Both the position numbers and the translations under genes were made by a program. Positions 39,615 through 64,000 of a stretch of DNA of 64,000 nucleotides are shown piece by piece. The stretch is from an uncultured delta proteobacterium (GTDB taxonomy: Bacteria; Desulfobacterota; Binatia; Binatales; Binataceae): the NCBI GenBank assembly GCA_963842085.1, contig CAWJET010000002.1:1280001-1344000 (forward strand), read 5' to 3'. A model generated the notes under the pieces. It was given only the letters and a program-made list of their open reading frames with translations. It had not been told where the DNA came from and ran no database searches. Position 1 is the first letter of the stretch, and each line of letters opens with the position of its first letter.

Positions 39615-41405
39615 TCACGCGGCTAGTTCTTGAGCCTCGCGCATCGCGCGGAACCGACCTGTTGGCCGCGCAGACAGCGCGTCCCAGTCGCCGGATTCGA
39701 CGACCCTGCCGTCTTCAATCACGTAGATTAGATCCGCCCACCTAACGGTTGCGATGCGATGAGCGATGAGGATGGTGGTGGTTCCTGCGCCTAGCTTTTC
39801 AAGCGCACTGAGAACGCGAGCCTCGCTCGCGGAATCGAGGTTGTTGGTTGCCTCGTCGAGTACCAAAAGCCGCGGACGCCTCAGTATCGCACGGGCAAGC
39901 GCTATCCTTTGCCGTTCGCCCTGCGATAATGCCACGCCCCTATCGCCGATGACCGTATCGAGCCCCATTGGGAGCGCCGCCAAGAAGTCGTCAGCCGCCG
40001 CGATCGAAAGTGCTTCTCGAATGTCCGTTTCACTCGCACCCGCTCGCGCCCATTCAACGTTGGCGCGAAGCGTGTCGTGGAAGAGAAACGTATCCGGCGC
40101 AACGTAGCCCACACACTCGCGCCATCGGCGCGCCTCCACGGGTGTCAACTCAGCTCCGTCGATCCTGATGAAACCCTCGTCGGGCGCGATCAACCCCATA
40201 GCTAGATCCGCCAACGTGCTCTTTCCGGCTCCCGATGGACCGACCAGCGCGACGACGGTACCGGCGGGAATGACCAGCTCGGCGCGATATACGGCTGGCG
40301 CCCGGTCGCGGCTGTACGAGAACGAGACGCGATCGAAGCGGATCTCGCGGCGCAGATCCGGCGCCGGCGCGTTCGGTATCCCCGGTTCGGCCGCCGCGGC
40401 GCATCGCTGCTCCAAGGCGATCAAGTTTCCAAAAGAAGGTAGGAGACCAGCGGCCGATCGCAATTGCTGATGACCAGACATCAACCGCGGCATGACGCGC
40501 GCGAACAGCACTAGCAGGATCAGAATTGCGGCGGGCGGAACCGAGAGCACCCGGATCGCCGCGTAGAGCACCGCGCCCATGATCGCGGCCGAGCCTAGCT
40601 CGAACCACGCCGTAGCCGCGGCCTGCGCACCGATCGCCGCAAGGTCGGCAGCCATGAGTGCGCGGCTTGAGCGGGCGAAGATCGAGAAGTTGCGCTCTTC
40701 AGCTCCGCAAGCTTTTGCTGTCTTCAGGCTGTGTAGATGTTCGATCGTCACTGCATATAGCGAGCCCCTGAAATCGGACTGTCTCTGGCCCGCTTGTTCA
40801 ATCGCGCGAGTGCGCCCGCGGAGCGCGATTGCGAGCACCGCAGCGCAGCTCAACACCAGCAGCGTCATCGCAGCCGAGAGCCGAAGCGCGAGCGCGCAAT
40901 ACACAGCGGTCAACACGATATTTGCCGCAACAAGCATGATGTCGTAGGCTGCCTCTCTTACGCGATCGAGTTCGCCGGTCAGCGCATGGGTGAAATCCGA
41001 TGCTCGGCTGCGGCAGATGAACAGCCAGTTAGCGTTCGTGATCGCGCGGTAGAGCCGCAGCCGCATCTCGAGCACGAACTGTTGCTGGACCGCGTACATA
41101 GCCAAGCTCTGCAGCCGACCGACGATCGTTCGCAGCGCAATCAACACGACCAACATGGCGAGCAGAATCTCAAGTGACGGTGTGATCCCCACAGCAGAAA
41201 ATGCGCGTTCGATCGTGCGCGCGTAGCGGCCCGCTGAACCCTGCCCTGCAAGATCGAGCCCCGCGGCTTGCAGGGTTGGCAGCAGGAGCAGGATGCCAAG
41301 GCCTTCGGTCATCGAGAACGCGACCATAAGCGCCACGGCCGCGGTAAGGCGCCACCCGGCGGACCTGGCGAGCTCGCGCACAAACCTGAGCGCCGCGCGG
41401 TTCAT
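39615..41405 (-). CDS. ABC exporter (TMD+NBD), lasso D-type
   Basis: TM domain, GPSGAGKST, LSQGERQR, LVLDEAT; ATGA overlap with the upstream gene. Confidence 0.93.
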   Translation of the reverse strand: MNRAALRFVRELARSAGWRLTAAVALMVAFSMTEGLGILLLLPTLQAAGLDLAGQGSAGRYARTIERAFSAVGITPSLEILLAMLVVLIALRTIVGRLQSLAMYAVQQQFVLEMRLRLYRAITNANWLFICRSRASDFTHALTGELDRVREAAYDIMLVAANIVLTAVYCALALRLSAAMTLLVLSCAAVLAIALRGRTRAIEQAGQRQSDFRGSLYAVTIEHLHSLKTAKACGAEERNFSIFARSSRALMAADLAAIGAQAAATAWFELGSAAIMGAVLYAAIRVLSVPPAAILILLVLFARVMPRLMSGHQQLRSAAGLLPSFGNLIALEQRCAAAAEPGIPNAPAPDLRREIRFDRVSFSYSRDRAPAVYRAELVIPAGTVVALVGPSGAGKSTLADLAMGLIAPDEGFIRIDGAELTPVEARRWRECVGYVAPDTFLFHDTLRANVEWARAGASETDIREALSIAAADDFLAALPMGLDTVIGDRGVALSQGERQRIALARAILRRPRLLVLDEATNNLDSASEARVLSALEKLGAGTTTILIAHRIATVRWADLIYVIEDGRVVESGDWDALSARPTGRFRAMREAQELAA

Positions 41406-42613
41406 TGACGTGCGATCTGCGCAGTACGCGGCAAGATACGCGGTCCATGCTGAAGCAGGAGCCGCACTGGGCGCGTCAAGTAATAGGCCCAATAGAACGC
41501 TTTGGGCAGCGGCAGTGCTTCCCAGTCTTCGATCGTCGGGCGCAGGCCTCTGGTCAGCAAATACTGAAGGCGTAGTCCCAATCCTTCGATAGCGCTCAAT
41601 GGCACTACCCAGTCGCAGTATATCGATGGCAAAAGACCGGGCGCCGGAAAAAGCCGGCGGGCAATTCCGACGGCAAGCCGCATCACCCGGCCGTCGGAAG
41701 TAGATCGGCCTAGCACACCTTCAGGGACATGCCCACCTGCGAACGCTTGCGCAAGCACCGCACCAAGACGGAACATTCGCGTACATCCTAATCGCGCCAT
41801 CTCGTCTTCAGTTTGCTCCCAATCCGCCAAGCCTGTTGCGGTCAGCGCGGCGATGTCGCACATCGAGCGCAGCGACGCCCATCCCCATCCGTGCTTGGTC
41901 GCGTGCGCGATGCTGAAGATCAGGTGGTTGTCCGGGGCCAGCGTTTGCATCCACCGCCCATCGATCTCGACCACAACGCCGTTGCGCCAGACCGCTTCGT
42001 GGTTCGGACGATAGGGAAAATAGCTTGGCACCAGCGCTAGGTGCAGGTCGATCAGCAGACCGCCTTGCTTCTCGAACTGATCCTCGAAGGATCGGAAGAA
42101 ACCAAAATACGGAGCGCCGGATTGGTATCGCCGGGGGCGATAGCCCCGATCCGTAAGGATTCTGCCAACCTGCGGCAAGTCGCCTTGCCGGACGAGGATG
42201 TCCAGGTCGCCTGACTGACGGGCCGCGAGATCTCCATAGGCCTGAACTGCGAGCGCCGGTCCCTTGAGCGCGAGCATACCAAGCCCGGCTGCCGCGAACG
42301 CTTCATGAACCTCGACGAGCTCATGCGCCAGCCGGAGATGCGTGAGTGCGTTCGCCGCGTACCAGGCGTGAAGACGCGCGGCTATATCGGCTGGAACGCG
42401 GTCCGCGCAATGCGCGGCTAGGAAGCGATGCACGGGAGGTATGACGAAATGCCCCGCGGCCTCGGACGCAACTCGGTCCCAGTCGAGATCGCGGGCGGCA
42501 AGCGCAGTCGCGCGGGAACGCGACTCAGAGGTCGCAGGTGTCGAAATGCACGCAGCGATCAGCTGCCCCTCGAGCGGCAGCTCAGCACGCAGCGATTGGG
42601 CTATGTCATCCAT
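41402..42613 (-). CDS. Nucleotidyltransferase family protein (lasso N-type)
   Basis: LKGPALA..YGD...R.SGDLDILV, IDLH, HATKHGW; start uncertain. Confidence 0.9.
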   Translation of the reverse strand: MDDIAQSLRAELPLEGQLIAACISTPATSESRSRATALAARDLDWDRVASEAAGHFVIPPVHRFLAAHCADRVPADIAARLHAWYAANALTHLRLAHELVEVHEAFAAAGLGMLALKGPALAVQAYGDLAARQSGDLDILVRQGDLPQVGRILTDRGYRPRRYQSGAPYFGFFRSFEDQFEKQGGLLIDLHLALVPSYFPYRPNHEAVWRNGVVVEIDGRWMQTLAPDNHLIFSIAHATKHGWGWASLRSMCDIAALTATGLADWEQTEDEMARLGCTRMFRLGAVLAQAFAGGHVPEGVLGRSTSDGRVMRLAVGIARRLFPAPGLLPSIYCDWVVPLSAIEGLGLRLQYLLTRGLRPTIEDWEALPLPKAFYWAYYLTRPVRLLLQHGPRILPRTAQIARQ

Positions 42614-42659
42614 AAGAGGCAGGCGGTATGCCGATACGGCCGCCAGGTTACCGACCGGT

Positions 42660-43133
42660 TCAGTGGCGGGCGTCGTACTCCGTACTACGAAAGAGCGCAG
42701 CATAGCGGCCCGATTCGAACGCGCCGCCGATCACGATTCCCCCTTTGTACTCGACCCACGCGTGGGCAGCGAGTTGGCCCGTCGGACTCTTTGACGCGCC
42801 TATCCGCAACTCGCTGGTCAAACCGAGCCGGCTCAGCATACGCTGTACCGCTATCGCACGCACCAGACAGTTGCGCCCGCCCGGAACGCACGCGCTTGCG
42901 GCCGCCACGGCCCGTGCAACACGAGCCACAAGCAGCGCTGGATCGTGGTTGTACGTGCTGTTTCGAGCGGGTGCGCCAGCCCAATCGCGCACCCGAGCGA
43001 ACGGCAGCAGAAGCAGCCTTGCTCGTGCTGCAAGCACGGCGAGGAACGCTCTGGGTAGTATTATCCACTCCGCTACGGATAATGTGCGAATCCTTCGAAT
43101 GCGGGCAAGCACGGGGCTCATGCGGGTGTTCAT
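42660..43133 (-). CDS. Lasso peptide leader peptidase B2 (transglutaminase-like)
   Basis: NCLVRA, LRIG, AHAWVE catalytic motifs. Confidence 0.93.
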   Translation of the reverse strand: MNTRMSPVLARIRRIRTLSVAEWIILPRAFLAVLAARARLLLLPFARVRDWAGAPARNSTYNHDPALLVARVARAVAAASACVPGGRNCLVRAIAVQRMLSRLGLTSELRIGASKSPTGQLAAHAWVEYKGGIVIGGAFESGRYAALFRSTEYDARH

Positions 43134-43155
43134 TGCGCCACGCGCAGGTCGAGCT

Positions 43156-44187
43156 TCAGCGCCCTGCTGAGAGCTTGGCACTCTCACGATTGCCGCCGCT
43201 CATATCCGCGAGCACCATCTCGCGTACCGCGGCTAACGCGGTGAAGTCGTTCGGAACTACGAGCTTCTTTACCGGCACTTTCGCGACGACCTGCTTGAGA
43301 AATCGAAGTTTGTGGAGATTGGCGGCGCGATCAGTTGATTCGAATAACCACGACGCTGACGCCAGTTCGACCAAGGATTCGGCCCAAGACATGTGCTCGA
43401 CCTTTGGCGCATGGGTCTGGTCCGCATCGTTGTCCAGCCGGTTCAATCGGTATATCCACTTGAGCGGCACCGATTTGGCCGCCAAACTGGCCCTGGGGTC
43501 GGCGGCGTCGTGCCGGCTCAAGCGAATAATCCGCCCGAGCGGCTGCGGTTGGGCGTTTGAATGGAGATCAGGCGCGCATCGCTCGGAGTTGTAGCCTGCG
43601 ACGGCGTCCGACCGAGCCGAGTCGATTCTCAGCGCTTCGACGCTTTCATTCGACAGCCACGCGCCTGGATAGCCGGGCGTGAGAACGATCTGGCCGCTGC
43701 CACTCAGACTCAGCACGACCCAGTCGTCGCCGAGCAGCGGGAAGCCCGCAAGTGCAAAGCTTGCCGCGAGCGTCGATTTTCCGGTACCTCCCGGGCCGAT
43801 GAATGCGCACGCTCCATAGTCGGTCAAAAAGGCGGTCGCGTGGATCGACTTGATTCCGATCAGATCGAGAACACCCGGGATGACGCCATTGAGAAGCCGA
43901 TGTCGCAGTACCTTGGGAAAAATTTCAGAGTGTACTCTGCAATACTCTATCGCGCGCACCAGACAATTGCGCCAACCGGGAACGCGCGCGCTTGCGGCTG
44001 CCACGGCCCGTCCAACACGCGCCGCAAGCAGCGCAGGTGCAGCAGCCCAATCGCGCACGCGCGCAAATGCCAGCCACAGCAGCCTCGCTCGCACGGCAAG
44101 CACGGCGAGCAGGGCCCCGGGCACCGGCTTGCGGTCAGCTTCGGATAATGCGCGGACCTTTCGGATCCGGGCGAAGGCGGTTCTCAT
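43156..44187 (-). CDS. Chimera: partial lasso B2 N-terminus fused in frame to an HPr-kinase-like domain
   Basis: N-terminus copies B2 up to NCLVRAI; then IHATA, GPGGTGKSTLA, LGDD, homologous to 44225-45223. Confidence 0.8.
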   Translation of the reverse strand: MRTAFARIRKVRALSEADRKPVPGALLAVLAVRARLLWLAFARVRDWAAAPALLAARVGRAVAAASARVPGWRNCLVRAIEYCRVHSEIFPKVLRHRLLNGVIPGVLDLIGIKSIHATAFLTDYGACAFIGPGGTGKSTLAASFALAGFPLLGDDWVVLSLSGSGQIVLTPGYPGAWLSNESVEALRIDSARSDAVAGYNSERCAPDLHSNAQPQPLGRIIRLSRHDAADPRASLAAKSVPLKWIYRLNRLDNDADQTHAPKVEHMSWAESLVELASASWLFESTDRAANLHKLRFLKQVVAKVPVKKLVVPNDFTALAAVREMVLADMSGGNRESAKLSAGR

Positions 44188-44224
44188 TCCAACGACCAGT
44201 GTGTCGGCACCTGTAGTCTGAGCG

Positions 44225-45223
44225 TCAGCACACTTCGAGGAATCCCACGCTATCACGCTCGTGACCGCTCATATCCGCGAGCACCATCTCACGTGCCGCG
44301 GGTAACGCGGCGAAGTCGTTCGGAACTACGAGCTTCTTTATTGGCACTTTCGCGACGACCTGCTCGAGGAATCGGAATTGGCGGAGATTGGCAAAGCGAT
44401 CAGTTGGATTGAATCGATACGACGCTGACGCCAGCTCGATCAACGATTCGGCTCGAGACATGCGCTCGATCCTTGGCGCATAGGTCTGGTCCGCGACGTT
44501 GTCCGTCAGCCGGTTCAATCGGTATATTTGTTTGAGCGGCAGCGATTCGGTCGCGAAATTTCGCCTCAGGTCCGGAACCCGACGTTTCCAATCGTCGTCG
44601 CCGATAGTTTCCGATCGGGCCGGATAGATGCCGAGTGCGTCAAGGCTGTCACCCCACAGACGCGTGCCCGCGTAGCCAGGCGTCAGGACAATCTCTAGGG
44701 CGCTGCAAAGGACGACGCAATCGTCGCCGAGAAGGAGCGCTCCGCTGCGCACAAGACTTGTGGCCAAGGTGGACTTGCCGGCGCCGGTCGGACCGAGGAA
44801 CGCGCATGCGCCGCCATCGATTGCAACCGCCGTCGCATGAATCGCCTCGAAGCCACGGAGATCGAGCACGCGGGGAATTACGGCGTCCAATAAGAGATGC
44901 CGCAGCATATCGCGCGAAGTCGCATCGCAAAGCCCGCAGCACTCAATTTCATCACCGCCTTCGCTGACGAAGAAATCCGCCAGTCCGGGAAACCGCAACA
45001 GGTAGCCACCGGGGGTAGTCGCACAGATTAGCCACTCCTGCCCGTCGATATTGTCGTGACGTAAAAAGACCGCATCGGGATCGAATTCGATCAGTCTTGC
45101 AATCTGGAGGCGTACGCGCATCACAGCTTGCGGCTCATGCTCGCTGCCCGAGTACGGCGTTAGTTCCGGAAGAAGCACGTCGGAGTCGAGGCGGATTCCG
45201 TACACTGAATACGACGGCATCAT
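44225..45223 (-). CDS. HPr-kinase-like lasso peptide kinase
   Basis: YSVYGIRLDSD, IHATAV, GPTGAGKSTLA, LGDD. Confidence 0.88.
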   Translation of the reverse strand: MMPSYSVYGIRLDSDVLLPELTPYSGSEHEPQAVMRVRLQIARLIEFDPDAVFLRHDNIDGQEWLICATTPGGYLLRFPGLADFFVSEGGDEIECCGLCDATSRDMLRHLLLDAVIPRVLDLRGFEAIHATAVAIDGGACAFLGPTGAGKSTLATSLVRSGALLLGDDCVVLCSALEIVLTPGYAGTRLWGDSLDALGIYPARSETIGDDDWKRRVPDLRRNFATESLPLKQIYRLNRLTDNVADQTYAPRIERMSRAESLIELASASYRFNPTDRFANLRQFRFLEQVVAKVPIKKLVVPNDFAALPAAREMVLADMSGHERDSVGFLEVC

Positions 45224-45471
45224 TGAAGATCGATCTGGTCGAGAGACGCCCGCAGGCGCTGCTGGAACCTCCAGCGCAGATTTCGTTCAACCGGAAGAAT
45301 CACGCGCGTTCCCGTCGGCTCGGCCTCGTGAGAATTCTCGAGAGACCCGGAAAAAGTGCGGCTGTAGTCATGTCTCCTAGGTATCTTGAGCGCGGAATCC
45401 CGCGAGTCGGGACCCTTGTGGGGGTTAAGGCGCTTTGCGGCATACCCCCGTGCGTTGCGCCCAAGGTACGT

Positions 45472-45660
45472 TTACGGAAAGCCCGGAAACTGAAAGCCCT
45501 GCTTTTTGGTCATCCTGTCTGATCTTCTACCCGCACTGCCAGCGGTGAGCTTCGCAACGTCACCGTACCTCACCAAAGCGGGCTTTACATACAGCGGGCG
45601 AGGACTGGCGCAGTATTTCCCGATCGCAGGCGACGAACTGCTGTTGCTTTCGGGCTTCAT
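45472..45660 (-). CDS. Lasso peptide precursor A
   Basis: AGGAG RBS; leader YVKPAL..YGDVAKLT(-2)A; core G1-SAGRRS-D8-RMTKKQGFQFPGFP. Confidence 0.9.
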   Translation of the reverse strand: MKPESNSSSSPAIGKYCASPRPLYVKPALVRYGDVAKLTAGSAGRRSDRMTKKQGFQFPGFP

Positions 45661-45940
45661 CCAAAATTCTCCTGCACCCGGTCAAATATAGTCAACTGAG
45701 TTAGCGAATTCCAGTCAGGGAAATCAATCAAATCGTCCGCTTCATGCCGCTAGTCATTGCCAAAGCTCCGTCGGCTAGCCCACTCCATAGTTCGAAATGA
45801 CGTGTGCCACGAATGGCTGCGCCTCGCGGGCATGTGAAACAGATCGGAATGCAATTCGTAAACCCGGCGCTCGATCTCCGCTCGTTCGCCGCGTCGGGTC
45901 GCACAGGTCAACGACCCAGCGCGCGCGGGCCACCACGGAG

Positions 45941-47932
45941 TCAGCACAAAGTAGGGGGCCTGTCTGGCGAGACTAGAGACATGCTCGAATCGCGATTTGT
46001 TTCGGTCGTTGCAATGCGGGCGAAGCCGCCCGAGAAGTGTCGAATCAGCATCTCAACTCCAAACAAGGCAAATCCGGTCCACATGTAATCGGTGCATCGA
46101 CAGTCGTGCGACTGATAGAATCGCCAGGCGGCTTCGTGCGCCTGCTTCAGCCGAGCCTGACTCACCCAGCCCATCTCCGCAATCTCCAGGCGATCGATCA
46201 GTGAATCACCAGTTTGCTTGACCGCTCTCATCATCAGGTCGCTGAAGTCACCCTTCGTGGTTCGCTTTCTGATCCGCTCGGGCAAGAGTTCCTTCATCGC
46301 ATGGCGCATGAGGAGCTTCGAAACTCCCTGGTTCCAGCGGTGCTCTTCAGCGAGCCCAGAGACAAATTCGATCACGCGGCGATCGCAAAATGGATGACGG
46401 TAATCAATACCGAGCCGCCCGGCGTCCCGCTCGCCTCCTTCAACCGCGTAGGTCAGCCATCCGTCGCGCATCAGGTACCACATCGCCCAGACCGCTTGTG
46501 GCTTTTCGTCCCACTCTCCAAGCGCCCGGCGCGCACGGTCCTCCAGATCAAAGCGCCTGGCAAAGGCCGGCTCGAGCCATGAGAGCCACGCAAATGAGGG
46601 GCTTTCGCCGCGGTTGAGCATTCGCCTGACGCGTTCTCGCGCGAACGCCGGCACGAACGGCCATACCGCCGAGCGAAAGACGACATCGATGAACCCGCGC
46701 TGGACCTCGCCTGACCCTATATTCTTTCTCAGCGATCGCAGGGCGTGGGCGAACCTCACCGGATGAACCCCGCGGACCAAAGCAGCGAGATCGCCGGTCC
46801 CTCCATCCATCGTGTGATCCCCGCCGTGACCGCTCAGCGCAACGCGCAGTCCCCGCGCAGCGACGTTCTGCATGAGGGTTTGCCCCATTGCGTAATTGGG
46901 ATACGGCGGCAATTCGAGGTGGCGATGCACGTAATCAGCGAACCAGGCGGCGTCCGGCTCGAATGCGTGGCATTCGTGGGTCGAGAAGTCGCACGCGCGC
47001 TCGACTTCGGCAATATATTCGCGCTCGTCCGCGTCAGGATCGGTATAATTCAGCGAGAATGGCTCGGCGCGATTGCTGACAATACCCCGGCGCATCAGAT
47101 CGTGTCCGATGCATACGATTGACGAGGAATCGAGGCCGCCGCTCAGATCGGCCGCAACATCACCCGGAGAGCGCATCCGGCATCGGACCGCCTCGACCAG
47201 GGTCTCGCGGAGGGCCGAAGCGGTATCGTCGTAAGTGGCAAAGCGAAGCGCCTTCGCTGCAGCCGGATCGTAGTACTCGCGATGCCTCATTCCCGAGCTG
47301 TCTACCGTGAGGCATGCCCCGCCTTCGAGTCTGAATATGTTGCGTATTACAGTCTCTCGACGCGTGAATGGACCGCCAGCTAGGCACTCTGCAAGAAACG
47401 CCTCGTTGAGCTTGCGGCCGATCGCATGGTCCTGAAGAATCTGGATCAGATCGGATGCGCACAGGAATCTTCTGCCGTCGAAGAAGTAGTGCAGCGGCTT
47501 GAAACCGAGCGGATCGCGCGCGCACAGCATCCTGCGTCTGCGGCCGTCCCATACCACGATCGCAAAATCGCCGAGCAAGCGGTTCCAGGCTCCTTCGTCC
47601 CAGAGCTCGAAGCATCGTCCGACGAGCTCTACATCGGTCGGTTCATCCAAGCTCGCGCCCGAAGATTCCAGTTCACGCAAGAGTTCCCTTCGGTTGTCGA
47701 TGCGCCCGTCGAAGATAACTCGGATGGTCGCGTCCGCGTTGACCCAGGGCTGGTCCTCGCGCACCGCCTCGGGTGTAGTGGCAAACTTCCGAAACGCCAT
47801 GCCCGCCGCCCCTTCGGTCCAGAACGCTGCACCGTCGGGACCGCGATCGCACACGGAGTCCACCATCGCGCGTAGCATAGCCCGGTCGGCCGGCCGCTCG
47901 TCGACGTTGAATATACCTGCGATCGCACTCAT
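45941..47932 (-). CDS. Lasso cyclase C (asparagine-synthetase-like)
   Basis: MSAIAG (no N-terminal Cys), ARDPLG.KPL, DLSGGLDSS, SGHGGD, HPFCD, R.TK. Confidence 0.92.
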   Translation of the reverse strand: MSAIAGIFNVDERPADRAMLRAMVDSVCDRGPDGAAFWTEGAAGMAFRKFATTPEAVREDQPWVNADATIRVIFDGRIDNRRELLRELESSGASLDEPTDVELVGRCFELWDEGAWNRLLGDFAIVVWDGRRRRMLCARDPLGFKPLHYFFDGRRFLCASDLIQILQDHAIGRKLNEAFLAECLAGGPFTRRETVIRNIFRLEGGACLTVDSSGMRHREYYDPAAAKALRFATYDDTASALRETLVEAVRCRMRSPGDVAADLSGGLDSSSIVCIGHDLMRRGIVSNRAEPFSLNYTDPDADEREYIAEVERACDFSTHECHAFEPDAAWFADYVHRHLELPPYPNYAMGQTLMQNVAARGLRVALSGHGGDHTMDGGTGDLAALVRGVHPVRFAHALRSLRKNIGSGEVQRGFIDVVFRSAVWPFVPAFARERVRRMLNRGESPSFAWLSWLEPAFARRFDLEDRARRALGEWDEKPQAVWAMWYLMRDGWLTYAVEGGERDAGRLGIDYRHPFCDRRVIEFVSGLAEEHRWNQGVSKLLMRHAMKELLPERIRKRTTKGDFSDLMMRAVKQTGDSLIDRLEIAEMGWVSQARLKQAHEAAWRFYQSHDCRCTDYMWTGFALFGVEMLIRHFSGGFARIATTETNRDSSMSLVSPDRPPTLC

Positions 47933-47956
47933 TGGCTGTTTCAGGAGGCGCGCGAT

Positions 47957-48226
47957 TTAAGCTGCAGTCTTGATCAGACCTTCGTTCGAGAGATCACTTA
48001 TGAGTTCGTCGAAATCGCGCTCAATCTGGTCGCGGGAAACGTTGTACTGGGTGGCTAGGGATTGCAAAATCTCTTCGCGTCTTCGGCCTGCCGCGATCAA
48101 GGTCCAGATACGCGCGCCGACCTGATTGAGACCGAAATAGATGCCAGTATCCAACTTTAGGATCACCACCTCATCATCGAGGTCGGTCCAGACCACGTCG
48201 TCGACAACTCGAAGGACATTCGTCAT
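47957..48226 (-). CDS. PqqD-family RiPP recognition element (lasso B1)
   Basis: DDEVVIL.LDTGIYFGLNQVGARIW..I...L...YNV....ERD..ELI..L..EGLI. Confidence 0.93.
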   Translation of the reverse strand: MTNVLRVVDDVVWTDLDDEVVILKLDTGIYFGLNQVGARIWTLIAAGRRREEILQSLATQYNVSRDQIERDFDELISDLSNEGLIKTAA

Positions 48227-48278
48227 GGCAGCAGAACCAGGTTGCCCTGAGTTGATTCGAGGATTGAATCGTCCACAC

Positions 48279-51430: not shown

Positions 51431-51506
51431 AACGGTTGATTTTACGTCGCGCTGCGTGAACTGAAATTCTATCAAGCAGCGCCATCGGCGCCAGTAATGC
51501 GTCCGC

Positions 51507-55250: not shown

Positions 55251-56162
55251 TCATTTTCCCATCTTCTCGAAGTACGCGTTGAGTACCATCCCCGCATCAC
55301 ACCAGTCACTGAGTCTCATTGCAGCATAAGTTATTCTCCAGCCGACAGCACCAAGCGGGCGGACGCGGGCCAGACGTTCGATCCTCCGCCGTGGCACTTT
55401 TGACACTGTCTCGATGCGGCGCACGCTGAAGCCGTTTTTCGCAAACAACTCCGTGAGACCGCGCTGGCTGAAAAAGTTAAGGTGTTCGGGCGGACTTACG
55501 AACATATCGTTGGTGCCCTGAAGCCGTGACACGAGCGAGCCGAAGTGCGGCACCGCTATCGCCGCGATTCCGCCCGGCCGCAGCACCGTGTGAAGATTCC
55601 TCACCGTATCAAGCGGATGCGGCAAATGCTCCAGCACCTGGCTCAGTAGCGCGACGTCGTATGAACAGCACACTCGTTGCGCAAATGTGCGATCGAAGAA
55701 CCTTTTCTGCGGGCTGAACCCGTTAACTTCGGTGAACACGGCATGCGCGTTCTCATTGGGTTCTATCGCGCTCACCCGGAAACCACGCTTCGCCGCAACG
55801 TGCGAGAAGGTCCCATTGCCCGCCCCCACATCGAGGACGCTCCAGCCTTTGGCCAGTCGAACGCACCTGTTGATGATGGTTTCCGCGTCACCCCACGACG
55901 TCGGGTAGTATGCAGCGTCAATTGAGTCGGCGTCCTTACGAGTAGGCGACCCATAAGCGGGACTTGCATACAGGGCGGCTAGTTCGCTGTCGTCCGGCCG
56001 GGGCCATACGAATCCTGATCGGCATGATTGGCACCTCCAAACCGTGTACGTTCCGGACTCCGTAAGTTTGTCCTGCCAGAAGGTGGCGAGCCCTCCAGCG
56101 CAGAACAAACATCCCTCCGGGGTTGCGGAGTTGGAGCGGCACGACGTGTCACTTCTGGCCAT
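55251..56162 (-). CDS. Class I SAM methyltransferase with N-terminal Zn motif
   Basis: CLFC..CQSC, VLDVGAGNG, QVLEHL, PPEHLNFF. Confidence 0.88.
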   Translation of the reverse strand: MARSDTSCRSNSATPEGCLFCAGGLATFWQDKLTESGTYTVWRCQSCRSGFVWPRPDDSELAALYASPAYGSPTRKDADSIDAAYYPTSWGDAETIINRCVRLAKGWSVLDVGAGNGTFSHVAAKRGFRVSAIEPNENAHAVFTEVNGFSPQKRFFDRTFAQRVCCSYDVALLSQVLEHLPHPLDTVRNLHTVLRPGGIAAIAVPHFGSLVSRLQGTNDMFVSPPEHLNFFSQRGLTELFAKNGFSVRRIETVSKVPRRRIERLARVRPLGAVGWRITYAAMRLSDWCDAGMVLNAYFEKMGK

Positions 56163-56582: not shown

Positions 56583-57785
56583 TCACCGGTTTAACCCCGC
56601 TGCGCGCACGGCTTGGGGGCAAGCGCCCTGGTTAGGGGTCCTGCCAGCCATAAGCATGTCGTCCTCGAACTTGCGCACGATGGCGTCCCATGAGAATTTC
56701 GAGGCGGCCTTGAGGCGCCCCCGCTCGCACAAGCGGGCGACAGGATGGGGATTATCGAACAATTCCGAAATACGCCGGACGAATTCGTCCCCGTCGCGGG
56801 CGAAAAGAATATCTTCGCCATGCTTGAGCCCAAGGCCCTCGGCGGCTTTCTCCGTAGCCACAACCGGGATGCCGGCGGCCATCGCTTCGAGAATCTTGAG
56901 GCGCGTCCCGGAACCCCAGAAAATCGGCGCGACGGCGACACCACATGCCGCTACGAAGCCCGGAAATTCATCGTAAGGCAGGGAGCCCGCATTCCTGATC
57001 CACGGCTCGCGGTACGGAGCGCCGCCTCCCGTCAGCGCCAGTGTCGCCGACGGGTGCCTCTGCCGCAGCGCCGGCACCACGGACGTGACCAGGAAATCGA
57101 TCGCCTCGCGATTAGGAGGGAAGGCATAAAATCCCGCGAAGAGCAGCGTGCGGCTGTCGATCCCGTATTTCGCCCGCAGGCTCGCAATTGTTTGGCGATC
57201 GAGCGGGGCAAATCGTTCGGTGTCAACACCGTTGGGCAGCAGTATCGGCTTTACACCGTAGAGCCGGACAAAATGCGACTGATCGACTTCCGAAACTGCG
57301 GTGACCAGGTCGGCATCGCGAGCAAGCCGCCTCTCGGCGAGGCGTGTCAGGAGCGCGACGGCCCGGCCGTTGCGGATCGAGCGCAGGAGATACTCGACGG
57401 CGTGCGAGTGGTAAACGACTTTGGTTTGCGGAATCGCTCGCCGAATTCGCCGCAGCAGCATCCAGTGGTAAAACGCCCACGAGGCGCCTTCGAGAATCAC
57501 CACATCGGGTTCCGCCATGCGGATTTCCGCGATCATCCGATTGACGAAGCCCGGCAGCCGAATGAGTCTTTCGCGGCGCGATTCGGACGCGCCGGCGAGC
57601 GTCACAACCTCCACGCCATCTGCGGTAACGAAGCGCCCGTCGTGGCAGCCGAGCTGTACCAGCACGCTGGAACCGCTGGCGAATTTCGCGAGGTTATAGC
57701 TGACGCTCGCCGAGCCGTGTGCCGGCGGATAGCCCTGATAAAAGCAGCAGAAAACAATCTTCAAAATTCGCTCCTGCGTTACCAC
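56583..57785 (-). CDS. GT4 glycosyltransferase
   Basis: PNGVD, PNREAI, GSGTRLKILEAMAAGIPVV. Confidence 0.92.
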   Translation of the reverse strand: MVTQERILKIVFCCFYQGYPPAHGSASVSYNLAKFASGSSVLVQLGCHDGRFVTADGVEVVTLAGASESRRERLIRLPGFVNRMIAEIRMAEPDVVILEGASWAFYHWMLLRRIRRAIPQTKVVYHSHAVEYLLRSIRNGRAVALLTRLAERRLARDADLVTAVSEVDQSHFVRLYGVKPILLPNGVDTERFAPLDRQTIASLRAKYGIDSRTLLFAGFYAFPPNREAIDFLVTSVVPALRQRHPSATLALTGGGAPYREPWIRNAGSLPYDEFPGFVAACGVAVAPIFWGSGTRLKILEAMAAGIPVVATEKAAEGLGLKHGEDILFARDGDEFVRRISELFDNPHPVARLCERGRLKAASKFSWDAIVRKFEDDMLMAGRTPNQGACPQAVRAAGLNR

Positions 57786-58014
57786 CCGAGCGTTAGATTC
57801 GAAGTGATGCGAAGAGAGAAACTCAGTTCTTCATTAGGAGGAATTGCCCGCGAGTGACGCTCGGCGCCGACAAAGCGACCCGCCGCGTCTGAAGGCAGGC
57901 TATATTGCCGTCTATGTCTCAAAAGGATTCATACGGTGTTAACAGACCGCGGAAAAATGCCGAATAGTCATAAAACAAGAGGCTGGTCCATCAATGGCTC
58001 CCCAAGAGGACAAA

Positions 58015-58974
58015 TCATACGAATGCACAATACTTATGGGCAAAGTCATATGGCATCTGGAAGACCTCTCCTCCGCGTCGGTCCACTTCATCCCTCAAGT
58101 CTTCCGCGTAAGGGAAGGCGGCGCAGGATCCTTGGTAGGCTAGCAACAGTCCACGCGCTCCAAACCACCCAGAATCCGCGACCGCCATCTGTGCCGTCTT
58201 GTTGGATTCGCTCAACGCCCAAGTGGAGATGAACAGATCTCCCACAATGTCGCGTCGCGGCAACATCGACACCGGAAGAATATTGATCCGCCCCGGCAGC
58301 ACCGGGTGGCTCGGCAAAGTCACGGCGACGACGCTGTCCGGCCCGAGCACAGCGGACAGGTAATGCCATTGGATGGTGGCCATGATCGGCGTATCAAAGA
58401 TCACATAGGTCAGATCCCGGCGTCGCAAGCGGTGCCAGATACTGGCAAGCCCACCAAATCCCCCACCAAATTCAATAATCCTTGAGATGGTCGGGTCATA
58501 GGCATTGATTCGCCGATAACTGAGATATCGCAGCAGCATCCAGGCGTGCAAGATGCGTCCGGGCGATGTCATGTGCGCCCGGTCGCAAATCCGAGGATTA
58601 CCGACGAGATCCTCCTCCAGAAGCAGTTCGACCGGTTCCGATTCCGCGAAGGTCAGCACATCGGCCAAGTAAGGCTTCCAGATGGGCCTGATCGGATTTA
58701 GGCTCATCGTATGACAGAAGATCTCTTCATTAAGAAAGCCGACGGGCAAAGCAGGATTACAAAGGGTCACGAATCGATCGTTGAACTCTTGCCACGTATC
58801 CAGAATATACGGCGAGCAATCATTGCGCGCGAAGCTTGCATAGACTTCCTGGAAATCGTGGGAAAGGCTCCGAAAACGATCACCTTGTTCTCCCTTTCTC
58901 AAACCAAGCTCGGTATCCTGCGCATGAAGGAAATGTCGTCGAATCAGGTTCTTTATGTTTCTGCGGACACTCAT
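58015..58974 (-). CDS. Putative sugar O-methyltransferase
   Basis: IIEFGGGFGGLA, FISTWALSE; lies in the polysaccharide locus. Confidence 0.75.
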   Translation of the reverse strand: MSVRRNIKNLIRRHFLHAQDTELGLRKGEQGDRFRSLSHDFQEVYASFARNDCSPYILDTWQEFNDRFVTLCNPALPVGFLNEEIFCHTMSLNPIRPIWKPYLADVLTFAESEPVELLLEEDLVGNPRICDRAHMTSPGRILHAWMLLRYLSYRRINAYDPTISRIIEFGGGFGGLASIWHRLRRRDLTYVIFDTPIMATIQWHYLSAVLGPDSVVAVTLPSHPVLPGRINILPVSMLPRRDIVGDLFISTWALSESNKTAQMAVADSGWFGARGLLLAYQGSCAAFPYAEDLRDEVDRRGGEVFQMPYDFAHKYCAFV

Positions 58975-59023
58975 TTAGTCAGTTGAGGCCGGTCCTTGGT
59001 TGCAACAAGAAAAGAGATCGTTT

Positions 59024-60265
59024 TCACAGAGGTGCCTGTAATGAGCGCGCCGGGCCGCAAGCGGCCATTGAGGCGCCAGCCGACAGGCTGGATTTGGCGA
59101 GAAACTTTTCGACGGCGGCGCGGAAGTCGCGCATGAAGTTCTCGGCGGAAAACTTTTCGGCCTGCCGCCAGAGATGTTCCAAAAGGCTCGCCTGCAACGC
59201 CGGCCGGCTGAGCACCGCGCAGATCTTCTCCACGGCGTCATCCTCGTCGCGGTAGAGCAAGCTGTCGTGGTCAAGAATCTCCGCCGGTCCGCCCTCCGCC
59301 GGAGCAAACGTGATGCACCCGGCCTTGACCATCTCGGCCACCGCTATGCCGAACGCCTCGCCTTTGCGCGCGTGGATTCCATATCGACAGTCCGTAAGTA
59401 TTCGTAGCTTATCCTCGCCGGCGCGCGACCCTTCCAGCAACACCCATTCAGGATGCCCTAGAGCGAGCGAACCTATCCTCTTTGAGTATGGGGAGTTATC
59501 GAGCGGACCAATTATCCTGATCCGCACATTGTGCCCTCGGCTGCGAACGACGCCGACCATTCTGATCATTCGTTCGATTCTCTTTTCCGGCGAGATCCGA
59601 CCAATGCATGCGAAGTCATCGCTCCGACGTTCCCTCGGAACATCCGGAAACTCACCGGTAACCGGCTCATAAAGCACTTCCGAGGCGGCGCCGTACCTGT
59701 CGCGCAGTATTTGCGCGGTCCACTGCGAGTTGGCGAGAATCAGATCTTCTCCGGAGAAAAGATTGCGACTCGACGACATTTGAACTCTCCGGCCCAGCGC
59801 GAGATAAGCGCGCCGAAGCCAGAGATGGCGATGGAAGATGCCGCGGATCCCACTGGGAGCAGGATCGTGTTTCGTCCGCAGTTCCTCATCCCATGAGAAG
59901 TCGGAAATCCTGTGAATGCCGGGCGCTCCGAAATCGCAGAGATTGTAGCCGCTGATCAACATGTCATACTCGTCCGCGATCGAACGGACGGTGCGCTGGA
60001 AAAATGCGCCGCGGAGCGCGGCGGCACCGCTGAGGCGGGCGAGCAACGGAGGCGTCACCAACCTGCGGAGGGTGATTTCTTCTTCGCCAAGCGAGGTCCC
60101 GTAAAACTCGTTCATCGCTCCAAGGTTGAGCGTACTGCTGGTTACAATGGAGGTTTCGAAGTCGCGCTTGAGAGCCTCGGCTCCCCACATAACTGCAGCT
60201 TCAGATCCCCCGCCCCCCATCCCGGGATGGACGATGGCGACGGAAACTTTTCGGTGTTTAATCAA
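59024..60265 (-). CDS. GT4 glycosyltransferase (ALG11-like)
   Basis: HPGMGGGGSE, ANSQWT, GRISPEK, EAFGIAVAEMVKAG; start approximate. Confidence 0.88.
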   Translation of the reverse strand: MIKHRKVSVAIVHPGMGGGGSEAAVMWGAEALKRDFETSIVTSSTLNLGAMNEFYGTSLGEEEITLRRLVTPPLLARLSGAAALRGAFFQRTVRSIADEYDMLISGYNLCDFGAPGIHRISDFSWDEELRTKHDPAPSGIRGIFHRHLWLRRAYLALGRRVQMSSSRNLFSGEDLILANSQWTAQILRDRYGAASEVLYEPVTGEFPDVPRERRSDDFACIGRISPEKRIERMIRMVGVVRSRGHNVRIRIIGPLDNSPYSKRIGSLALGHPEWVLLEGSRAGEDKLRILTDCRYGIHARKGEAFGIAVAEMVKAGCITFAPAEGGPAEILDHDSLLYRDEDDAVEKICAVLSRPALQASLLEHLWRQAEKFSAENFMRDFRAAVEKFLAKSSLSAGASMAACGPARSLQAPL

Positions 60266-60334
60266 TGTTGGTTTGGTGCAAACCGCCGCACCGGGACCGC
60301 GTCGCCGGCGACACCCTGGAGAGGCATTTCCCAA

Positions 60335-60600: not shown

Positions 60601-60747
60601 GCGCAATGAGGAGGCCGCCGTGTTTTGGTGCAGGTGTGATTGCCGAAACATGTTGCCAACAGGTGTCGGCACCCATTCACACTACCGAAGCCACGCGCCC
60701 CATAGGCGGCCGCCCGAGCATCCGGCTGGAAGGTCAATTCGCTTGCA

Positions 60748-61731
60748 TTAATGAACGAAGATCAAGTCCTTGACCGCCGTGCGGATGCCGCTGGAAAACC
60801 GGTGATATCGGCGAGCGAAGAGTTCGTTTGCTATGTGCGGAATCCGGGCGATCCTGTTCTTGGGCAGCAGGTAGCGCGTGCGCCAGTGTTGCAAAAGCGC
60901 GGCGCGTAACTCCGACGGCGGAAGCCGCCTTGTCTCAGCTTTTTCCAAATGCTCGATCAGAACGGGCACTATCGGAAGCGCCCGCTTGTGACGCGCCTTC
61001 CACAAAGCCGCGAGCCTGACGCCGACCGAGGCGGTCGCATTTCCGCTGGTGTTGTGCTCGTGCTGGCGGAACGCAAGCAACGCGCGATCGACCAGCAATA
61101 TTCCGCCCGCACCCAGCAGCACGGCGGTCCAGACCAGATATCTGTCGAACCATCCCCGAAGGACCTGATCAGAGTCGGGTAGTGGGAGGACTACGTCGCG
61201 AGTCTTGGCTCGGATCGCAAGACAATTGGCCGCGGCTGGTATGGTCGGATTAAGTATCTGACTCCGTTCGAGCGCCGCGCGGTCGGTCCTGACGGCCTTG
61301 AAGTTGTAGACGTTCCAGACGGTCTCGCCCAGCGGCTTTAACGCAGCATCGACGATATCTGCATTGCACACGGCTACAGCGGCATGCGGAGAATTGGCTA
61401 GCGCATCTGTCATGATCCGGATTTTCTCAGGATACCAGACGTCATCACAGTCACAGAGGAAGATGATTTCGCCTGCGCACTTGAGCATAGCGCGCTCGAA
61501 GTTCCTGCTCACTCCGAGGTTCGAGTCGTTGATGAATAACCGCACCGGAAACGGGGCGCGAACAGCGAAGTCGCGGACGATCTCAACCGTGCGATCGGTC
61601 GAAGCGTTGTCGCTGACTACCAACTCATCAGGGGGTCGCGTCTGGCGAACTAAGCTATCGAGCTGCTCCCGTATGAAGCGCTCGCCGTTGTACACCGCCA
61701 TCGCAATAGAGATTTTCGATCCGGTGCTCAC
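60748..61731 (-). CDS. GT2 glycosyltransferase
   Basis: ISIAMAVYNGE, DNASTD, LCDCDDVW, RQH. Confidence 0.93.
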   Translation of the reverse strand: MSTGSKISIAMAVYNGERFIREQLDSLVRQTRPPDELVVSDNASTDRTVEIVRDFAVRAPFPVRLFINDSNLGVSRNFERAMLKCAGEIIFLCDCDDVWYPEKIRIMTDALANSPHAAVAVCNADIVDAALKPLGETVWNVYNFKAVRTDRAALERSQILNPTIPAAANCLAIRAKTRDVVLPLPDSDQVLRGWFDRYLVWTAVLLGAGGILLVDRALLAFRQHEHNTSGNATASVGVRLAALWKARHKRALPIVPVLIEHLEKAETRRLPPSELRAALLQHWRTRYLLPKNRIARIPHIANELFARRYHRFSSGIRTAVKDLIFVH

Positions 61732-62807
61732 TTGCGGGCCTCCAGAAGAAGCTCATCCGCAACGAGCGGGTTCCACAGGCGCATCAGCATCTCGACAAAT
61801 GCCGCCGCGCGCGCGTAAAGAAGCTCCGGCCGGGCCGGCGGGCGCATCATGTCGCCGCGCCCAAACCGGCGAATGAGACGGCTCTGAGTAAACACGTACG
61901 GCGTGATCCGAAGCGTGCTCGAAACATCGCTCTGGACGAACCCGGCGCGCCTTGCCAGCGCGGTCAAGCTATTGGTGTTGAAGATCTGCAGGTGTCGCGG
62001 CGGTTCCAGCCCGCGCCAGTTGGGACCGAAGTGACGGTGGCCCCAGCTCCCAGCGTTGGGCGTTGTGACCGCCAATGTACCGCCCATGCGCAGCACCCGG
62101 CGGATTTCGCGAAGCGTCGCGAGCGGATCGTGGACGTGCTCGATCACGTGGCTCATCAGAACCAGATCGAATGACTCGTCCGGGTAGCGCTGCTCGGCCA
62201 GACGTCCAAGCCTGACGGAAAGTCCCCTGCACCGTCCCGTTTCAACCGCGCGCGCATCGAAGTCCACGCCCTCGGCGTTCCAGCCAAGCTCTTGGGCGAG
62301 CTTTAACACCGAGCCGTCGCCGCATCCGACATCGAGCACGCATCCCTTTTCGGGAACGGCGAGATAGCGAAGCGGAATGTCCAGCGCATCGCATTCAATG
62401 CGCGAGAGCAGGATCGGCAGCGCAAGCAACCAGCGCAATGGTTTTCCGGCGTCATCTCCATAATTAAAGCGCCAGGCACGATAGGCCGACCTGCAAAGCT
62501 CTGCCGCGCGCTGGAGCGCTCCAGGCGGGGCTGGTGGCGGCGTATCCTCAGAGGCGGCATGGGTGAAATAGGTCCCGTAAGCAATCCCGATATCCTCCTC
62601 GAGCGGCATCGGGTCGAGCCATAGAAGACCGCATTCGGGGTTCGGGCATCGCTTGAGGTTCCATCTGCCTGGTGCGTTGAACAGCCGATCTTTGAGCCCC
62701 TCGTACAGCGGCTCGCCGCCAGTGCCACACAGGGGGCAGTCCGGGCACGGGAACGAGCGGATCCCGCTCCCTAAATCTGATCTGATTTCGGCGGCTGCAG
62801 TGTTCAT
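61728..62807 (-). CDS. Class I SAM methyltransferase with N-terminal Zn motif
   Basis: CPLC..C...CGL, LDVGCGDG, HVIEHV, PPRHL. Confidence 0.9.
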   Translation of the reverse strand: MNTAAAEIRSDLGSGIRSFPCPDCPLCGTGGEPLYEGLKDRLFNAPGRWNLKRCPNPECGLLWLDPMPLEEDIGIAYGTYFTHAASEDTPPPAPPGALQRAAELCRSAYRAWRFNYGDDAGKPLRWLLALPILLSRIECDALDIPLRYLAVPEKGCVLDVGCGDGSVLKLAQELGWNAEGVDFDARAVETGRCRGLSVRLGRLAEQRYPDESFDLVLMSHVIEHVHDPLATLREIRRVLRMGGTLAVTTPNAGSWGHRHFGPNWRGLEPPRHLQIFNTNSLTALARRAGFVQSDVSSTLRITPYVFTQSRLIRRFGRGDMMRPPARPELLYARAAAFVEMLMRLWNPLVADELLLEARK

Positions 62808-62811
62808 CGGC

Positions 62812-64000
62812 TCACCGCGACATCAGCGGCATCGCGGCGCGCAGGCGCATGCGCACCGTTTCGCGTTCCGTCGGCGCCAGCATCATGCGCCAGCCCCACG
62901 TCCCGAATCCGGCAACGACTAGGGCCACGTAGGCGGCGCGAAGAGAAGGAGCCGCGATAGTAAATGCCAAGCCGATCGCGACTGCTCCTCCGGCAAGGCG
63001 CAATGCGGTACGCATAACCGCGGCGCGCACGCCCGGTAATATCCGCGCTGCAGCCCAGTAGAGGAGTGCGGCATCGAGCGCAACCCGTCCAAGGTACACG
63101 AACGCGGCGCCCTCTACTCCGAACAGGCGCAGCCCGAGCCAGAGCCCCGCCAGGTAAACGGGAACCTCGACCACGTGGAATTTCGCGGTCAGGTCGGGCC
63201 GATGCGCGGCCTGCAGCAAGGTGTAGGGAAGATAGGCGAGACCGTTTACCATAACTGCTAGCCCGATCCATCGCATCACCCAGAAGCTGCGTGCACCGAA
63301 GTCGCTCCCGATCCAAAACGTCATGATCTCCGGAGCGAATACCGCCATCACCAATGCCGCCGGAAACAGCGCGATGAAGACATAGGTCACGGCGCGATCG
63401 AACAGGCGCGCCGCGCGCGCCGTGTCGGCGGCAAGCTCCGTAGACAGCGCCGGGAACATCACGCTCGCCAGCGCGCCGGGCACGATCATCAGCGTCGATG
63501 CGGCCTTCTGAGGCACCGAGTAGTAGGCGACCGCGGCCACCGAAATCATCGCGCTGATGAAGAAGCGGTCGAAGTAGGACATGATCGGGCCGGTAATCCC
63601 GGACACCGTGACCCATCCGCCGAACGAGAACAGCGGCGCGAGCATCGCGCGGCGCACCACGATGCGCCTGCCGAATGGAGGAAATACACGTATGCACAAA
63701 AGAAGGTGCACGCCCAATGATGCTGCACGGCCGACCACTAACACTGCGACAATCCAGAAGACGCTGTGCGAGAAGGGCAGCACCGCGAGCGGGGCGAGGT
63801 AGCTGAAGAATCCGAATGGTACGCGGACGGCGTTCAGAAGGTCGAAGCGCTGGAATGCCGCGAGCATCCCTGCCAGCGTGCCTGCGCAGATGATTAGCGG
63901 AAACGCGACTGCGAGCAGCCAGAAGGTGTGAAGCGCCTCGGATTGCAGGGTCGGAGGTATATTGAGGACTCGGTGCACTAGCCATGGCGATACCGCCGCC
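62812..64000 (-). CDS. wzx: Wzx flippase (5' part outside window)
   Basis: Many TMs, FSFGGW, DRFFIS....VAYY, FPALS, FGVEGAA. Confidence 0.88.
   Translation of the reverse strand, partial: AAVSPWLVHRVLNIPPTLQSEALHTFWLLAVAFPLIICAGTLAGMLAAFQRFDLLNAVRVPFGFFSYLAPLAVLPFSHSVFWIVAVLVVGRAASLGVHLLLCIRVFPPFGRRIVVRRAMLAPLFSFGGWVTVSGITGPIMSYFDRFFISAMISVAAVAYYSVPQKAASTLMIVPGALASVMFPALSTELAADTARAARLFDRAVTYVFIALFPAALVMAVFAPEIMTFWIGSDFGARSFWVMRWIGLAVMVNGLAYLPYTLLQAAHRPDLTAKFHVVEVPVYLAGLWLGLRLFGVEGAAFVYLGRVALDAALLYWAAARILPGVRAAVMRTALRLAGGAVAIGLAFTIAAPSLRAAYVALVVAGFGTWGWRMMLAPTERETVRMRLRAAMPLMSR

Follow-up and report, generated by a model that had tools for sequence, protein, structure and literature searches.

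Why lasso peptides tailored by a kinase and a nucleotidyltransferase occur in capsule and exopolysaccharide (EPS) loci is a question that has been posed recently (PMC13381572), and on which a locus of an uncultured delta proteobacterium of the family Binataceae bears directly. The window analysed here, i.e., the whole stretch of 64,000 nucleotides at positions 1,280,001 to 1,344,000 of contig CAWJET010000002.1 (GenBank assembly GCA_963842085.1), harbours a complete lasso peptide cluster of the order B1-C-A-K1-K2-B2-N-D (39615-48226), which directly follows a Wzx/Wzy polysaccharide locus reaching from wzx to a gene for a WecA-like priming transferase (48279-64326). Both reside on the minus strand, which holds all credible genes between 39615 and 64000. 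A preliminary description of these genes, made from the letters of the sequence, had proposed that the peptide may be decorated with sugars from the neighbouring pathway, or may serve the surface polysaccharide as a cap, anchor or signal; the genes, their order and their orientation as given there were all confirmed. On balance, the locus is probably best regarded as an autonomous, phospho-tailored class-II (split-B) lasso module that was inserted behind a polysaccharide operon and is expressed together with it by transcriptional read-through.

With respect to gene content, all core lasso genes are present and intact. The leader of the precursor A has a Y-x-x-P-x-L...T(-2) motif, and the last 22 residues, GSAGRRSDRMTKKQGFQFPGFP, form the predicted core with a predicted lactam between Gly1 and Asp8; together with the separate B1 and B2 genes and with C, these are the features of a split-B lasso system. 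Of the features of phospho-lasso clusters, a PF14907 nucleotidyltransferase and an ABC exporter were both found. The polysaccharide locus, in turn, holds the set of genes expected of a Wzx/Wzy-dependent pathway, namely a priming transferase, Wzx, Wzy, Wza and Wzc.

The two parts meet at a very short distance. As the preliminary description had noted, the stop codon of the WecA-like gene (48279) and the ATG of B1 (48226) are separated by only 52 bp (48227-48278), and a pattern scan of this gap, which was read directly, yielded neither a terminator-like nor a promoter-like site. The corresponding gap spans ~53 bp in G062 and ~115 bp in G069, two relatives carrying an orthologous cluster. Two further genomes, G041 and G056, contain the orthologous polysaccharide operon without the lasso genes, and match the window only to ~48244-48318, after which unrelated genes follow; homology to both of them ends at, or a few tens of bases beyond, the WecA-like stop codon. 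These comparisons suggest that a module of ~8.6 kb was inserted ~25-35 bp past this stop codon; given the position at which the homology ends, the module itself has at most ~20-30 bp before the start of B1. A 31-aa match in G041 considered as a possible B1 remnant turned out to overlap the end of the WecA-like gene in the wrong frame, and the search for a tRNA or tmRNA gene as an integration site beside the module returned only a tRNA-Gln gene at 2631-2707.

Whether the linkage is conserved, which the preliminary description had proposed to check by synteny, was examined in all 165 genomes of the family, family and order being the same here (G000 is the genome of the window). An orthologous C (E <= 1e-130) is present in three of them, i.e., in G000, in G062 from the same genus and in G069 from another genus; a sample of 400 other genomes from the phylum yielded none (E <= 1e-120). 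The clusters of G062 and G069, with C proteins 61-64% identical, likewise sit right after the orthologous operon and its WecA-like gene, and the layout in L098, a metagenome contig from a near-identical strain, is equal to that of the window. The proposed synteny thus held in all three family genomes having the orthologous cluster, but not on an orthologous contig of 9 kb (L101), which belongs to a metagenome-assembled genome (MAG) labelled Gemmatimonadaceae and forms, with L099 and L100, a single sequence (99.99% identical). Compared with the window, its D, N, C and K1 proteins are 89%, 78%, 65% and 61% identical, respectively; a divergent, partial PF14907 gene is found upstream of B1 in place of the WecA-like gene, and a polysaccharide deacetylase gene comes after D. 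In a tree of 26 C proteins (IQ-TREE, quick search), this contig is sister to G062 with a Shimodaira-Hasegawa-like approximate likelihood ratio test (SH-aLRT) value of 97, the orthologue clade receiving 100. In G056 and G041, both of the same genus as the window, the operon is present with a WecA-like protein 85-86% identical and other operon genes 57-88% identical, and no B2 and no K1 match could be found genome-wide.

Across the family, a K1-type kinase occurs in 96, B2 in 100 and a WecA-like gene in 125 of the 165 genomes. When coordinates were compared by eye, a WecA-like match turned up on the same contig for 14 of the 107 B2 matches, within 6 kb for four of them (G000, G062, G069 and G173) and 37 kb to 3.6 Mb away for the other ten; ~95 other lasso-bearing family genomes show no link to a WecA-like gene. 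In addition, none of 16 paralogous lasso loci from the same genus (9-20 kb; 167 flanking open reading frames (ORFs) compared with Pfam) was accompanied by Wzx, Wzy, Wza, Wzc or a priming transferase, two loci (L028 and L031) having been excluded because their lone C-like match, at 28-29% identity, probably represents a non-lasso amidotransferase. That homologous clusters are usually unlinked from polysaccharide genes, which the preliminary description had named as the outcome that would tell against its proposal, is therefore largely what the family displays, the orthologous clusters of G000, G062 and G069 standing apart. The linkage between lasso and polysaccharide genes is thus real but optional. 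Isolated genes of a tailoring type do occur near paralogous clusters, such as a sulfotransferase gene with a GT2 or GT4 gene in L019 and L021, and a GT2 gene at the edge of L016.

Expression by read-through is suggested because the module has no room for a promoter of its own before B1. Transcripts that start at the operon's promoter, or at that of the WecA-like gene, would cover B1 and C and probably the module as a whole, so that peptide and polysaccharide would be produced at the same time. B1 would present the leader, B2 would cut after Thr(-2)-Ala(-1), and C would close the Gly1-Asp8 lactam to give a 22-residue lasso, on which K1 and K2 would phosphorylate a ring serine, with Ser2 or Ser7 as the candidates, in the manner of BsfK and its Ser3 and not in that of paeninodin; N would then modify the phosphate, as with a hexose in pseudomycoidin, and D would export the product. 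Neither are the polysaccharide genes needed for the peptide, nor is the peptide needed for the polysaccharide, and the function of K and N is independent of this locus because ~95 unlinked clusters also carry them. The relation between the two parts is therefore most likely one of co-expression, perhaps with a function in common on the cell surface or in biofilms.

Several observations weigh against this reading. What speaks for read-through is the geometry of the genes, and an internal promoter may reside in the 3' end of the WecA-like gene. Before A there is also a weak promoter-like site, TTGACT-18-GAGAAT (45666-45695, minus strand; 9/12 positions matching), which ends 6 nt before the ATG; with five such sites in the region versus 3.1 +/- 1.7 in shuffled sequences, it is a weak signal. 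In G069 the gap before B1 is, at ~115 bp, wider than in the window. The exporter gene of G062 shifts frame and loses homology after about residue 290 (L055, G062:C11, ~15640-16440), so that this copy may be decaying. The profile scores of both kinases fall below the curated cut-offs (PF07475 21 versus 33.3 bits, TIGR04352 27-30 versus 200 bits). Finally, differing kinase/nucleotidyltransferase cassettes are found beside WecA-like genes in G173, G088 and G161 and in capsule loci of Bacilli, a recurrence that hints at something beyond plain co-expression. As for the surroundings of these features, unrelated genes of the choloylglycine-hydrolase family and of an ice-binding-like type come after the broken exporter gene in L055 of G062, and the 257-nt spacer between A and K1, considered as a possible site of an attenuator or stem-loop 3' of A, folds no better than shuffled sequences (z = -0.96).

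The proposed acceptor derives from a comparison of five orthologous cores, from the window, L098, G062, G069 and L100. Gly1, Ser/Thr2 and Asp8 are common to all five and Ser/Thr7 to four of them; the tails diverge strongly, even where the flanking proteins are 96-98% identical. Between L098 (12273-12431) and the window (45472-45660), for instance, the tail differs in both sequence and length, with leader and ring almost unchanged. The core of the window ends in proline and hence lacks the C-terminal serine that serves as acceptor in paeninodin and pseudomycoidin, and a C-terminal serine was likewise found in none of 25 precursors beside related clusters, after exclusion of one spurious regular-expression match in L055. 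The cluster therefore resembles phospho-lasso systems, yet misses one defining trait of the paeninodin type. The kinases of paeninodin and pseudomycoidin target the C-terminal serine (PMC6993621, PMC10368454), whereas BsfK phosphorylates Ser3 of the core, within the ring (PMC10368454), and LppK also phosphorylates Ser3 (PMC13381572).

The second kinase, K2, corresponds to the gene for which the preliminary description had suggested a joint B2 and kinase origin, and this origin is borne out by BLASTP comparisons: residues 24-112 of K2 are 60% identical to residues 23-121 of B2, and residues 91-359 are 53% identical to residues 77-325 of K1. The part derived from B2 keeps the motif of the catalytic cysteine but not the peptidase histidine. 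As shown by four families of direct repeats (D1-D4; 78-88% identity) that recur in the DNA at a spacing of 1066-1096 bp, K2 arose via a tandem duplication of ~1.07 kb, in which the 3' portion of the kinase gene was copied together with the 5' portion of B2. Its ORF is intact in the near-identical strain represented by L098 (96%) as well as in G062 of the same genus (63% over 339 residues), and the chimera has therefore been kept since these lineages split; G069 and the contig L099/L100/L101 have one kinase each. Alignments show that K1 and K2 both carry the entire motif H-x14-G-x2-G-x-G-K-S-x15-D-D of BsfK, the residues of which were found to be important by mutagenesis (PMC10368454). Compared with solved structures, K1 gave matches to the P-loop only, and the protein-atlas clusters nearest to the kinase belong most commonly to the Pseudomonadota and Acidobacteriota. 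The B2-derived segment might dock the kinase on B1, in which case the conserved chimera would be a small example of a tailoring enzyme possibly acquiring a docking part from a leader peptidase.

A somewhat unlikely alternative is that the module landed by chance at the variable 3' flank of the operon, is regulated on its own and has no relation to the polysaccharide. This would fit the observation that the DNA 3' of the WecA-like gene is different in every genome inspected, with genes for Lon and an H+-PPase in G056, a gene of the metallo-beta-lactamase fold and a GH127 gene in G041, lasso clusters in some genomes, and epimerase-like genes in eight others. It would also fit the phage-type genes that adjoin the module in the window (CI-like repressor, Erf, RecE/YqaJ and HNH), the near-orthologous cluster on a contig of the Gemmatimonadaceae-labelled MAG, a sign of either mobility or mis-binning, and the identities between G000 and G062, which amount to 58-78% for the lasso genes compared to 78-88% for the adjacent polysaccharide genes. 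However, the module has nearly no upstream DNA of its own before B1, is co-oriented with the operon and keeps a gap of ~52-53 bp in two species; moreover, independent cassettes are found beside WecA-like genes, and the pairing is also reported in Bacilli (PMC13381572).

As to these cassettes, G173, an unpublished genome, has the order GT4, WecA-like gene (62%), D, K, B2, B1 and C, followed by oxygenase and methyltransferase genes with N, and its C protein falls in a different, well-supported branch of the C tree. On an 8.4-kb contig of G088, C, A, K and an ABC transporter pair are followed by a WecA-like paralogue (43%). In G161 (L091, G161:C2, 8442-17831), WecG and a WecA-like gene are followed by genes for a 739-aa protein without assignment, a kinase of the ScmC/HprK-like type, a maturase of the radical-SAM/SPASM type and a PF14907 nucleotidyltransferase, which by their family assignments would constitute a non-lasso peptide cassette bringing the kinase and nucleotidyltransferase pair to the same end of the operon. 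Rough arithmetic for genomes of ~4.3 Mb, with a 12-kb target around each of ~1.2 WecA-like genes and a total of 107 B2 loci, yields ~0.35 adjacencies expected by chance, compared to three lasso lineages seen adjoining a WecA-like gene, or two without the lineage that prompted the comparison. This excess is suggestive but not compelling, as relatives are non-independent and many assemblies are fragmented.

The same recurrence (cassettes in three further genera, two of the lasso type, from different branches of the C tree, and one of the radical-SAM/SPASM type), its excess over chance, and the position of the orthologous cluster behind the orthologous operon in all three family genomes would also be in line with the chemical coupling envisaged in the preliminary description, according to which the phospho-lasso may be decorated with sugars that the adjoining pathway makes, or may act as cap, anchor or signal. 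In such a scheme K would phosphorylate a serine, N would activate this phosphate or transfer onto it, and a phosphodiester might link the peptide to the polymer or its repeat unit. A kinase followed by a nucleotidyltransferase (LicA/LicC) is indeed known to activate alcohols such as choline for transfer to glycans. Nevertheless, such coupling is considered distinctly unlikely. K and N belong to ~95 lasso clusters of the family away from WecA-like genes, G041 and G056 have an intact operon but no module, and the orthologous cluster on the contig L099-L101 has another upstream neighbour. Nor was a suitable transferase apparent: the Pfam matches of the ORFs examined in the locus included no phosphotransferase of the LicD, TagF or Stealth type, an absence that weighs little since several ORFs belong to no family, and the sole family match to a SunS-like peptide glycosyltransferase was the GT2 protein with 19.9 bits versus a cut-off of 350. 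The literature can be read in both directions. In agreement with the roles that the preliminary description had given for the two enzymes, PsmK phosphorylates pseudomycoidin, and PsmN is needed for the addition of one or two hexoses to the phosphate (PMC6993621), which favours coupling; this addition took place in Escherichia coli without a dedicated polysaccharide locus (PMC6993621), which does not, and the authors left open whether PsmN is a novel glycosyltransferase or a nucleotidyltransferase feeding a host enzyme (PMC6993621, PMC9266682). In turn, LppN was inactive in a heterologous host, and the authors suspect that it needs a partner whose gene is not part of the core cluster (PMC13381572), again in favour of coupling.

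Least probable of all, and a rather long shot, is the specific version in which K and N would make a nucleotide-activated phospho-ester of the ring serine, much as choline is activated by a choline kinase and a cytidylyltransferase, and a phosphodiester would then attach the peptide to a sugar of the repeat unit that the WecA-like enzyme starts on undecaprenyl. If it were true, a basic, knotted peptide resistant to proteases would cap or anchor the exported polysaccharide, and peptide cassettes with a kinase and a nucleotidyltransferase that occur in the polysaccharide loci of several phyla would represent one general system of peptide-tagged surface glycans.

For the preferred reading of an inserted, co-expressed module as for its alternatives, the locus offers a natural comparison between operons with (G000, G062) and without the module (G041, G056), the boundary being mapped to a few tens of bases; co-transcription, the chemistry of the peptide and an effect on the polysaccharide are therefore directly testable.

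The features on which this analysis is based are compiled in Table 1. Within the lasso cluster, the intergenic gaps from the WecA-like gene to B2 measure, in order, 52, 24, 280, 248, 37 and 34 bp, the remaining genes overlapping. Some starts differ from those of the listed ORFs: by alignment, the start of B2 common to the orthologues is M23 at 43121, the conserved start of K2 is M24 at 44187, and D probably starts near 41405 because its orthologues align only from residue 30 on. The best NCBIfam model for C is that of the lasso cyclase (NF033535) with 393 bits, under the strict cut-off of 525, the B1 orthologues are of equal length and 62-94% identical, and N has no relative among solved structures by sequence search (E <= 1). 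In the polysaccharide locus, the C-terminal half of the WecA-like protein resembles the N-terminal half of WbaP (weak PF13727; positions 2-219 of TIGR03025 correspond to residues 363-582). An ORF at 62804-63985 considered as wzx is a wrong-frame shadow of the real gene, and past the end of the window the locus goes on with genes for an epimerase, a Wzy_C-TPR protein, Wzc and Wza (PF02563, PF13807, PF02706).

Table 1. Genes of the lasso cluster and of the adjoining polysaccharide locus, in window coordinates
Feature	Position	Strand	Support
D, ABC exporter, permease and ATPase fused	39615-41492	-	PF00005 99.7 bits, PF00664 57.3 bits
N, PF14907 nucleotidyltransferase, PsmN-like	41402-42703	-	PF14907 186.4 bits vs cut-off 31.2
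B2, leader peptidase, transglutaminase-like	42660-43121 (ORF listed from 43187)	-	NF033537 92.8 bits vs cut-off 33; PF13471 73.5 bits
K2, chimera of B2 N-terminus and kinase	43156-44187 (ORF listed from 44256)	-	sequence matches to B2 and K1
K1, HprK-like peptide kinase	44225-45223	-	PF07475 21 bits vs cut-off 33.3; TIGR04352 27.5 bits
A, precursor, 62 aa	45472-45660	-	NF033521 25.9 bits vs cut-off 19
C, lasso macrolactam synthetase, asparagine-synthetase-like	45941-47932	-	PF00733 143 bits, GATase_7 91 bits
B1, PqqD-type recognition element of RiPPs (peptides made by ribosomes and modified after translation), 89 aa	47957-48226	-	PF05402 65.2 bits; ATG at 48226
WecA/MraY-family priming glycosyl-1-phosphate transferase, 617 aa, last gene of the operon	48279-50132	-	PF00953 113 bits
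Epimerase	50429-51475	-	Pfam/NCBIfam
WecG	51507-52346	-	Pfam/NCBIfam
Wzy	52448-53824	-	PF04932 37.3 bits
GT4	53821-55152	-	Pfam/NCBIfam
Methyltransferase	55251-56162	-	Pfam/NCBIfam
GT4	56583-57785	-	Pfam/NCBIfam
Sugar-O-methyltransferase-like	58015-58974	-	Pfam/NCBIfam
GT4	59024-60334	-	Pfam/NCBIfam
GT2	60748-61731	-	Pfam/NCBIfam
Methyltransferase	61728-62807	-	Pfam/NCBIfam
wzx flippase, runs past the window end	62812-64326	-	PF01943 71.3 bits over the N-terminal 442 residues

Right after D, the plus strand of the window (33614-39149) codes for a CI-like repressor, an Erf-like annealing protein, a RecE/YqaJ exonuclease, an HNH endonuclease and a 578-aa protein without family. The gene for the latter and the HNH gene also come after D in L098, and a 54-aa fragment of the 578-aa protein (67% identical) is located at the end of the G088 contig. 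The 578-aa gene and D converge, and between their ends lies a perfect 28-nt inverted repeat (39084-39111 and 39217-39244) with a 105-nt spacer and tandem GATCGTCAGTG units, which may serve as a terminator in both directions or as a site of recombination. Further away, positions 1-34000 contain few long ORFs, amongst them a DDE_3 transposase gene of the insertion sequence (IS) type (186-1280), a gene for a CHASE3-PAS protein (11945-13534) and a truncated-looking T2SSE/MshEN ATPase gene (22095-23198), in addition to the tRNA-Gln gene mentioned above (2631-2707), and look like an area of gene flux or decay; a block of ~500 bp at 17405-17902 which is ~90% conserved with G056 is an ordinary gene of 149 aa.

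Other lasso loci of the family show peculiarities of their own. In L027 (G006:C4, 10806-12659), a gene for a GT41 protein (O-GlcNAc-transferase-like) resides between C and K, with JmjC and PRMT-like genes nearby, making its product a candidate for a directly glycosylated lasso peptide. L014 (G009:C5, 9963-15598) has three tandem C paralogues, 33-38% identical to C of the window, in one cluster with a JmjC gene. PRMT-like (PrmA/PRMT_C) methyltransferase genes are found inside the clusters L016, L017, L020, L022, L027, L029 and L030, and several such clusters also hold PhyH, 2-oxoglutarate (2OG) or JmjC oxygenase genes; the cores are Lys/Arg-rich.

Clusters of this kind are already known, and their co-location with polysaccharide genes, which the preliminary description had guessed to have been noted before, is in print for Bacilli, where they often co-localise with capsule loci in a role left open (PMC13381572, Nat Commun 2026). 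According to the same source, a family of linear polyphosphorylated peptides (LPP) shares the kinase, nucleotidyltransferase, recognition element and exporter, pbaB1, lppB and an EPS gene are up-regulated in synchrony in Paenibacillus, and the polysaccharide genes around the cluster 'could contribute to peptide modification' (PMC13381572). No paper describing such a pairing outside the Bacillota was found in a literature search that covered sources other than subscription journals. Like the window, the paeninodin-like and LPP clusters in capsule loci of Bacilli have an HprK-like kinase and a nucleoside triphosphate (NTP) transferase beside polysaccharide genes; in contrast to them, the window comes from a different phylum and envelope type, has no SipW-like signal peptidase or LPP cassette, and carries its module at the 3' extreme of the operon, behind the priming transferase, where it is present or absent among close relatives (PMC13381572).

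Pseudomycoidin (psmCAKB1B2ND) of Bacillus pseudomycoides DSM 12442 is encoded by genes of the same kinds, with the order K-B2-N-D in common (PMC6993621). However, B1 and C precede A in the window and a second, chimeric kinase is present, the acceptor in pseudomycoidin is the C-terminal serine whereas the core of the window ends in proline, and the host of the window has a Gram-negative-type Wza/Wzc pair, the module being joined to the polysaccharide operon. With the bsf cluster of Bradymonas sediminis FA350, the window has A, B1, B2, C, D, K and N in common, and the catalytic motif H-G-G-G-K-S-D-D of the bsf kinase, which modifies the ring residue Ser3 and is sped up by B1, is present in K1 and K2 (PMC10368454). 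The two differ in the leader residue at -2 (Ile in bsf, Thr in the window), in the acceptor (Ser3 as opposed to the candidates Ser2 or Ser7) and in their borders, which in bsf are formed by an FG-GAP protein gene and ribosomal protein genes and in the window by the polysaccharide operon (PMC10368454). New in the present locus are cores without a C-terminal serine, the conserved chimera of B2 and kinase, the setting of a Gram-negative-type Wza/Wzc/Wzx/Wzy locus, and an insertion boundary at the level of bases with relatives that have and relatives that lack the module.

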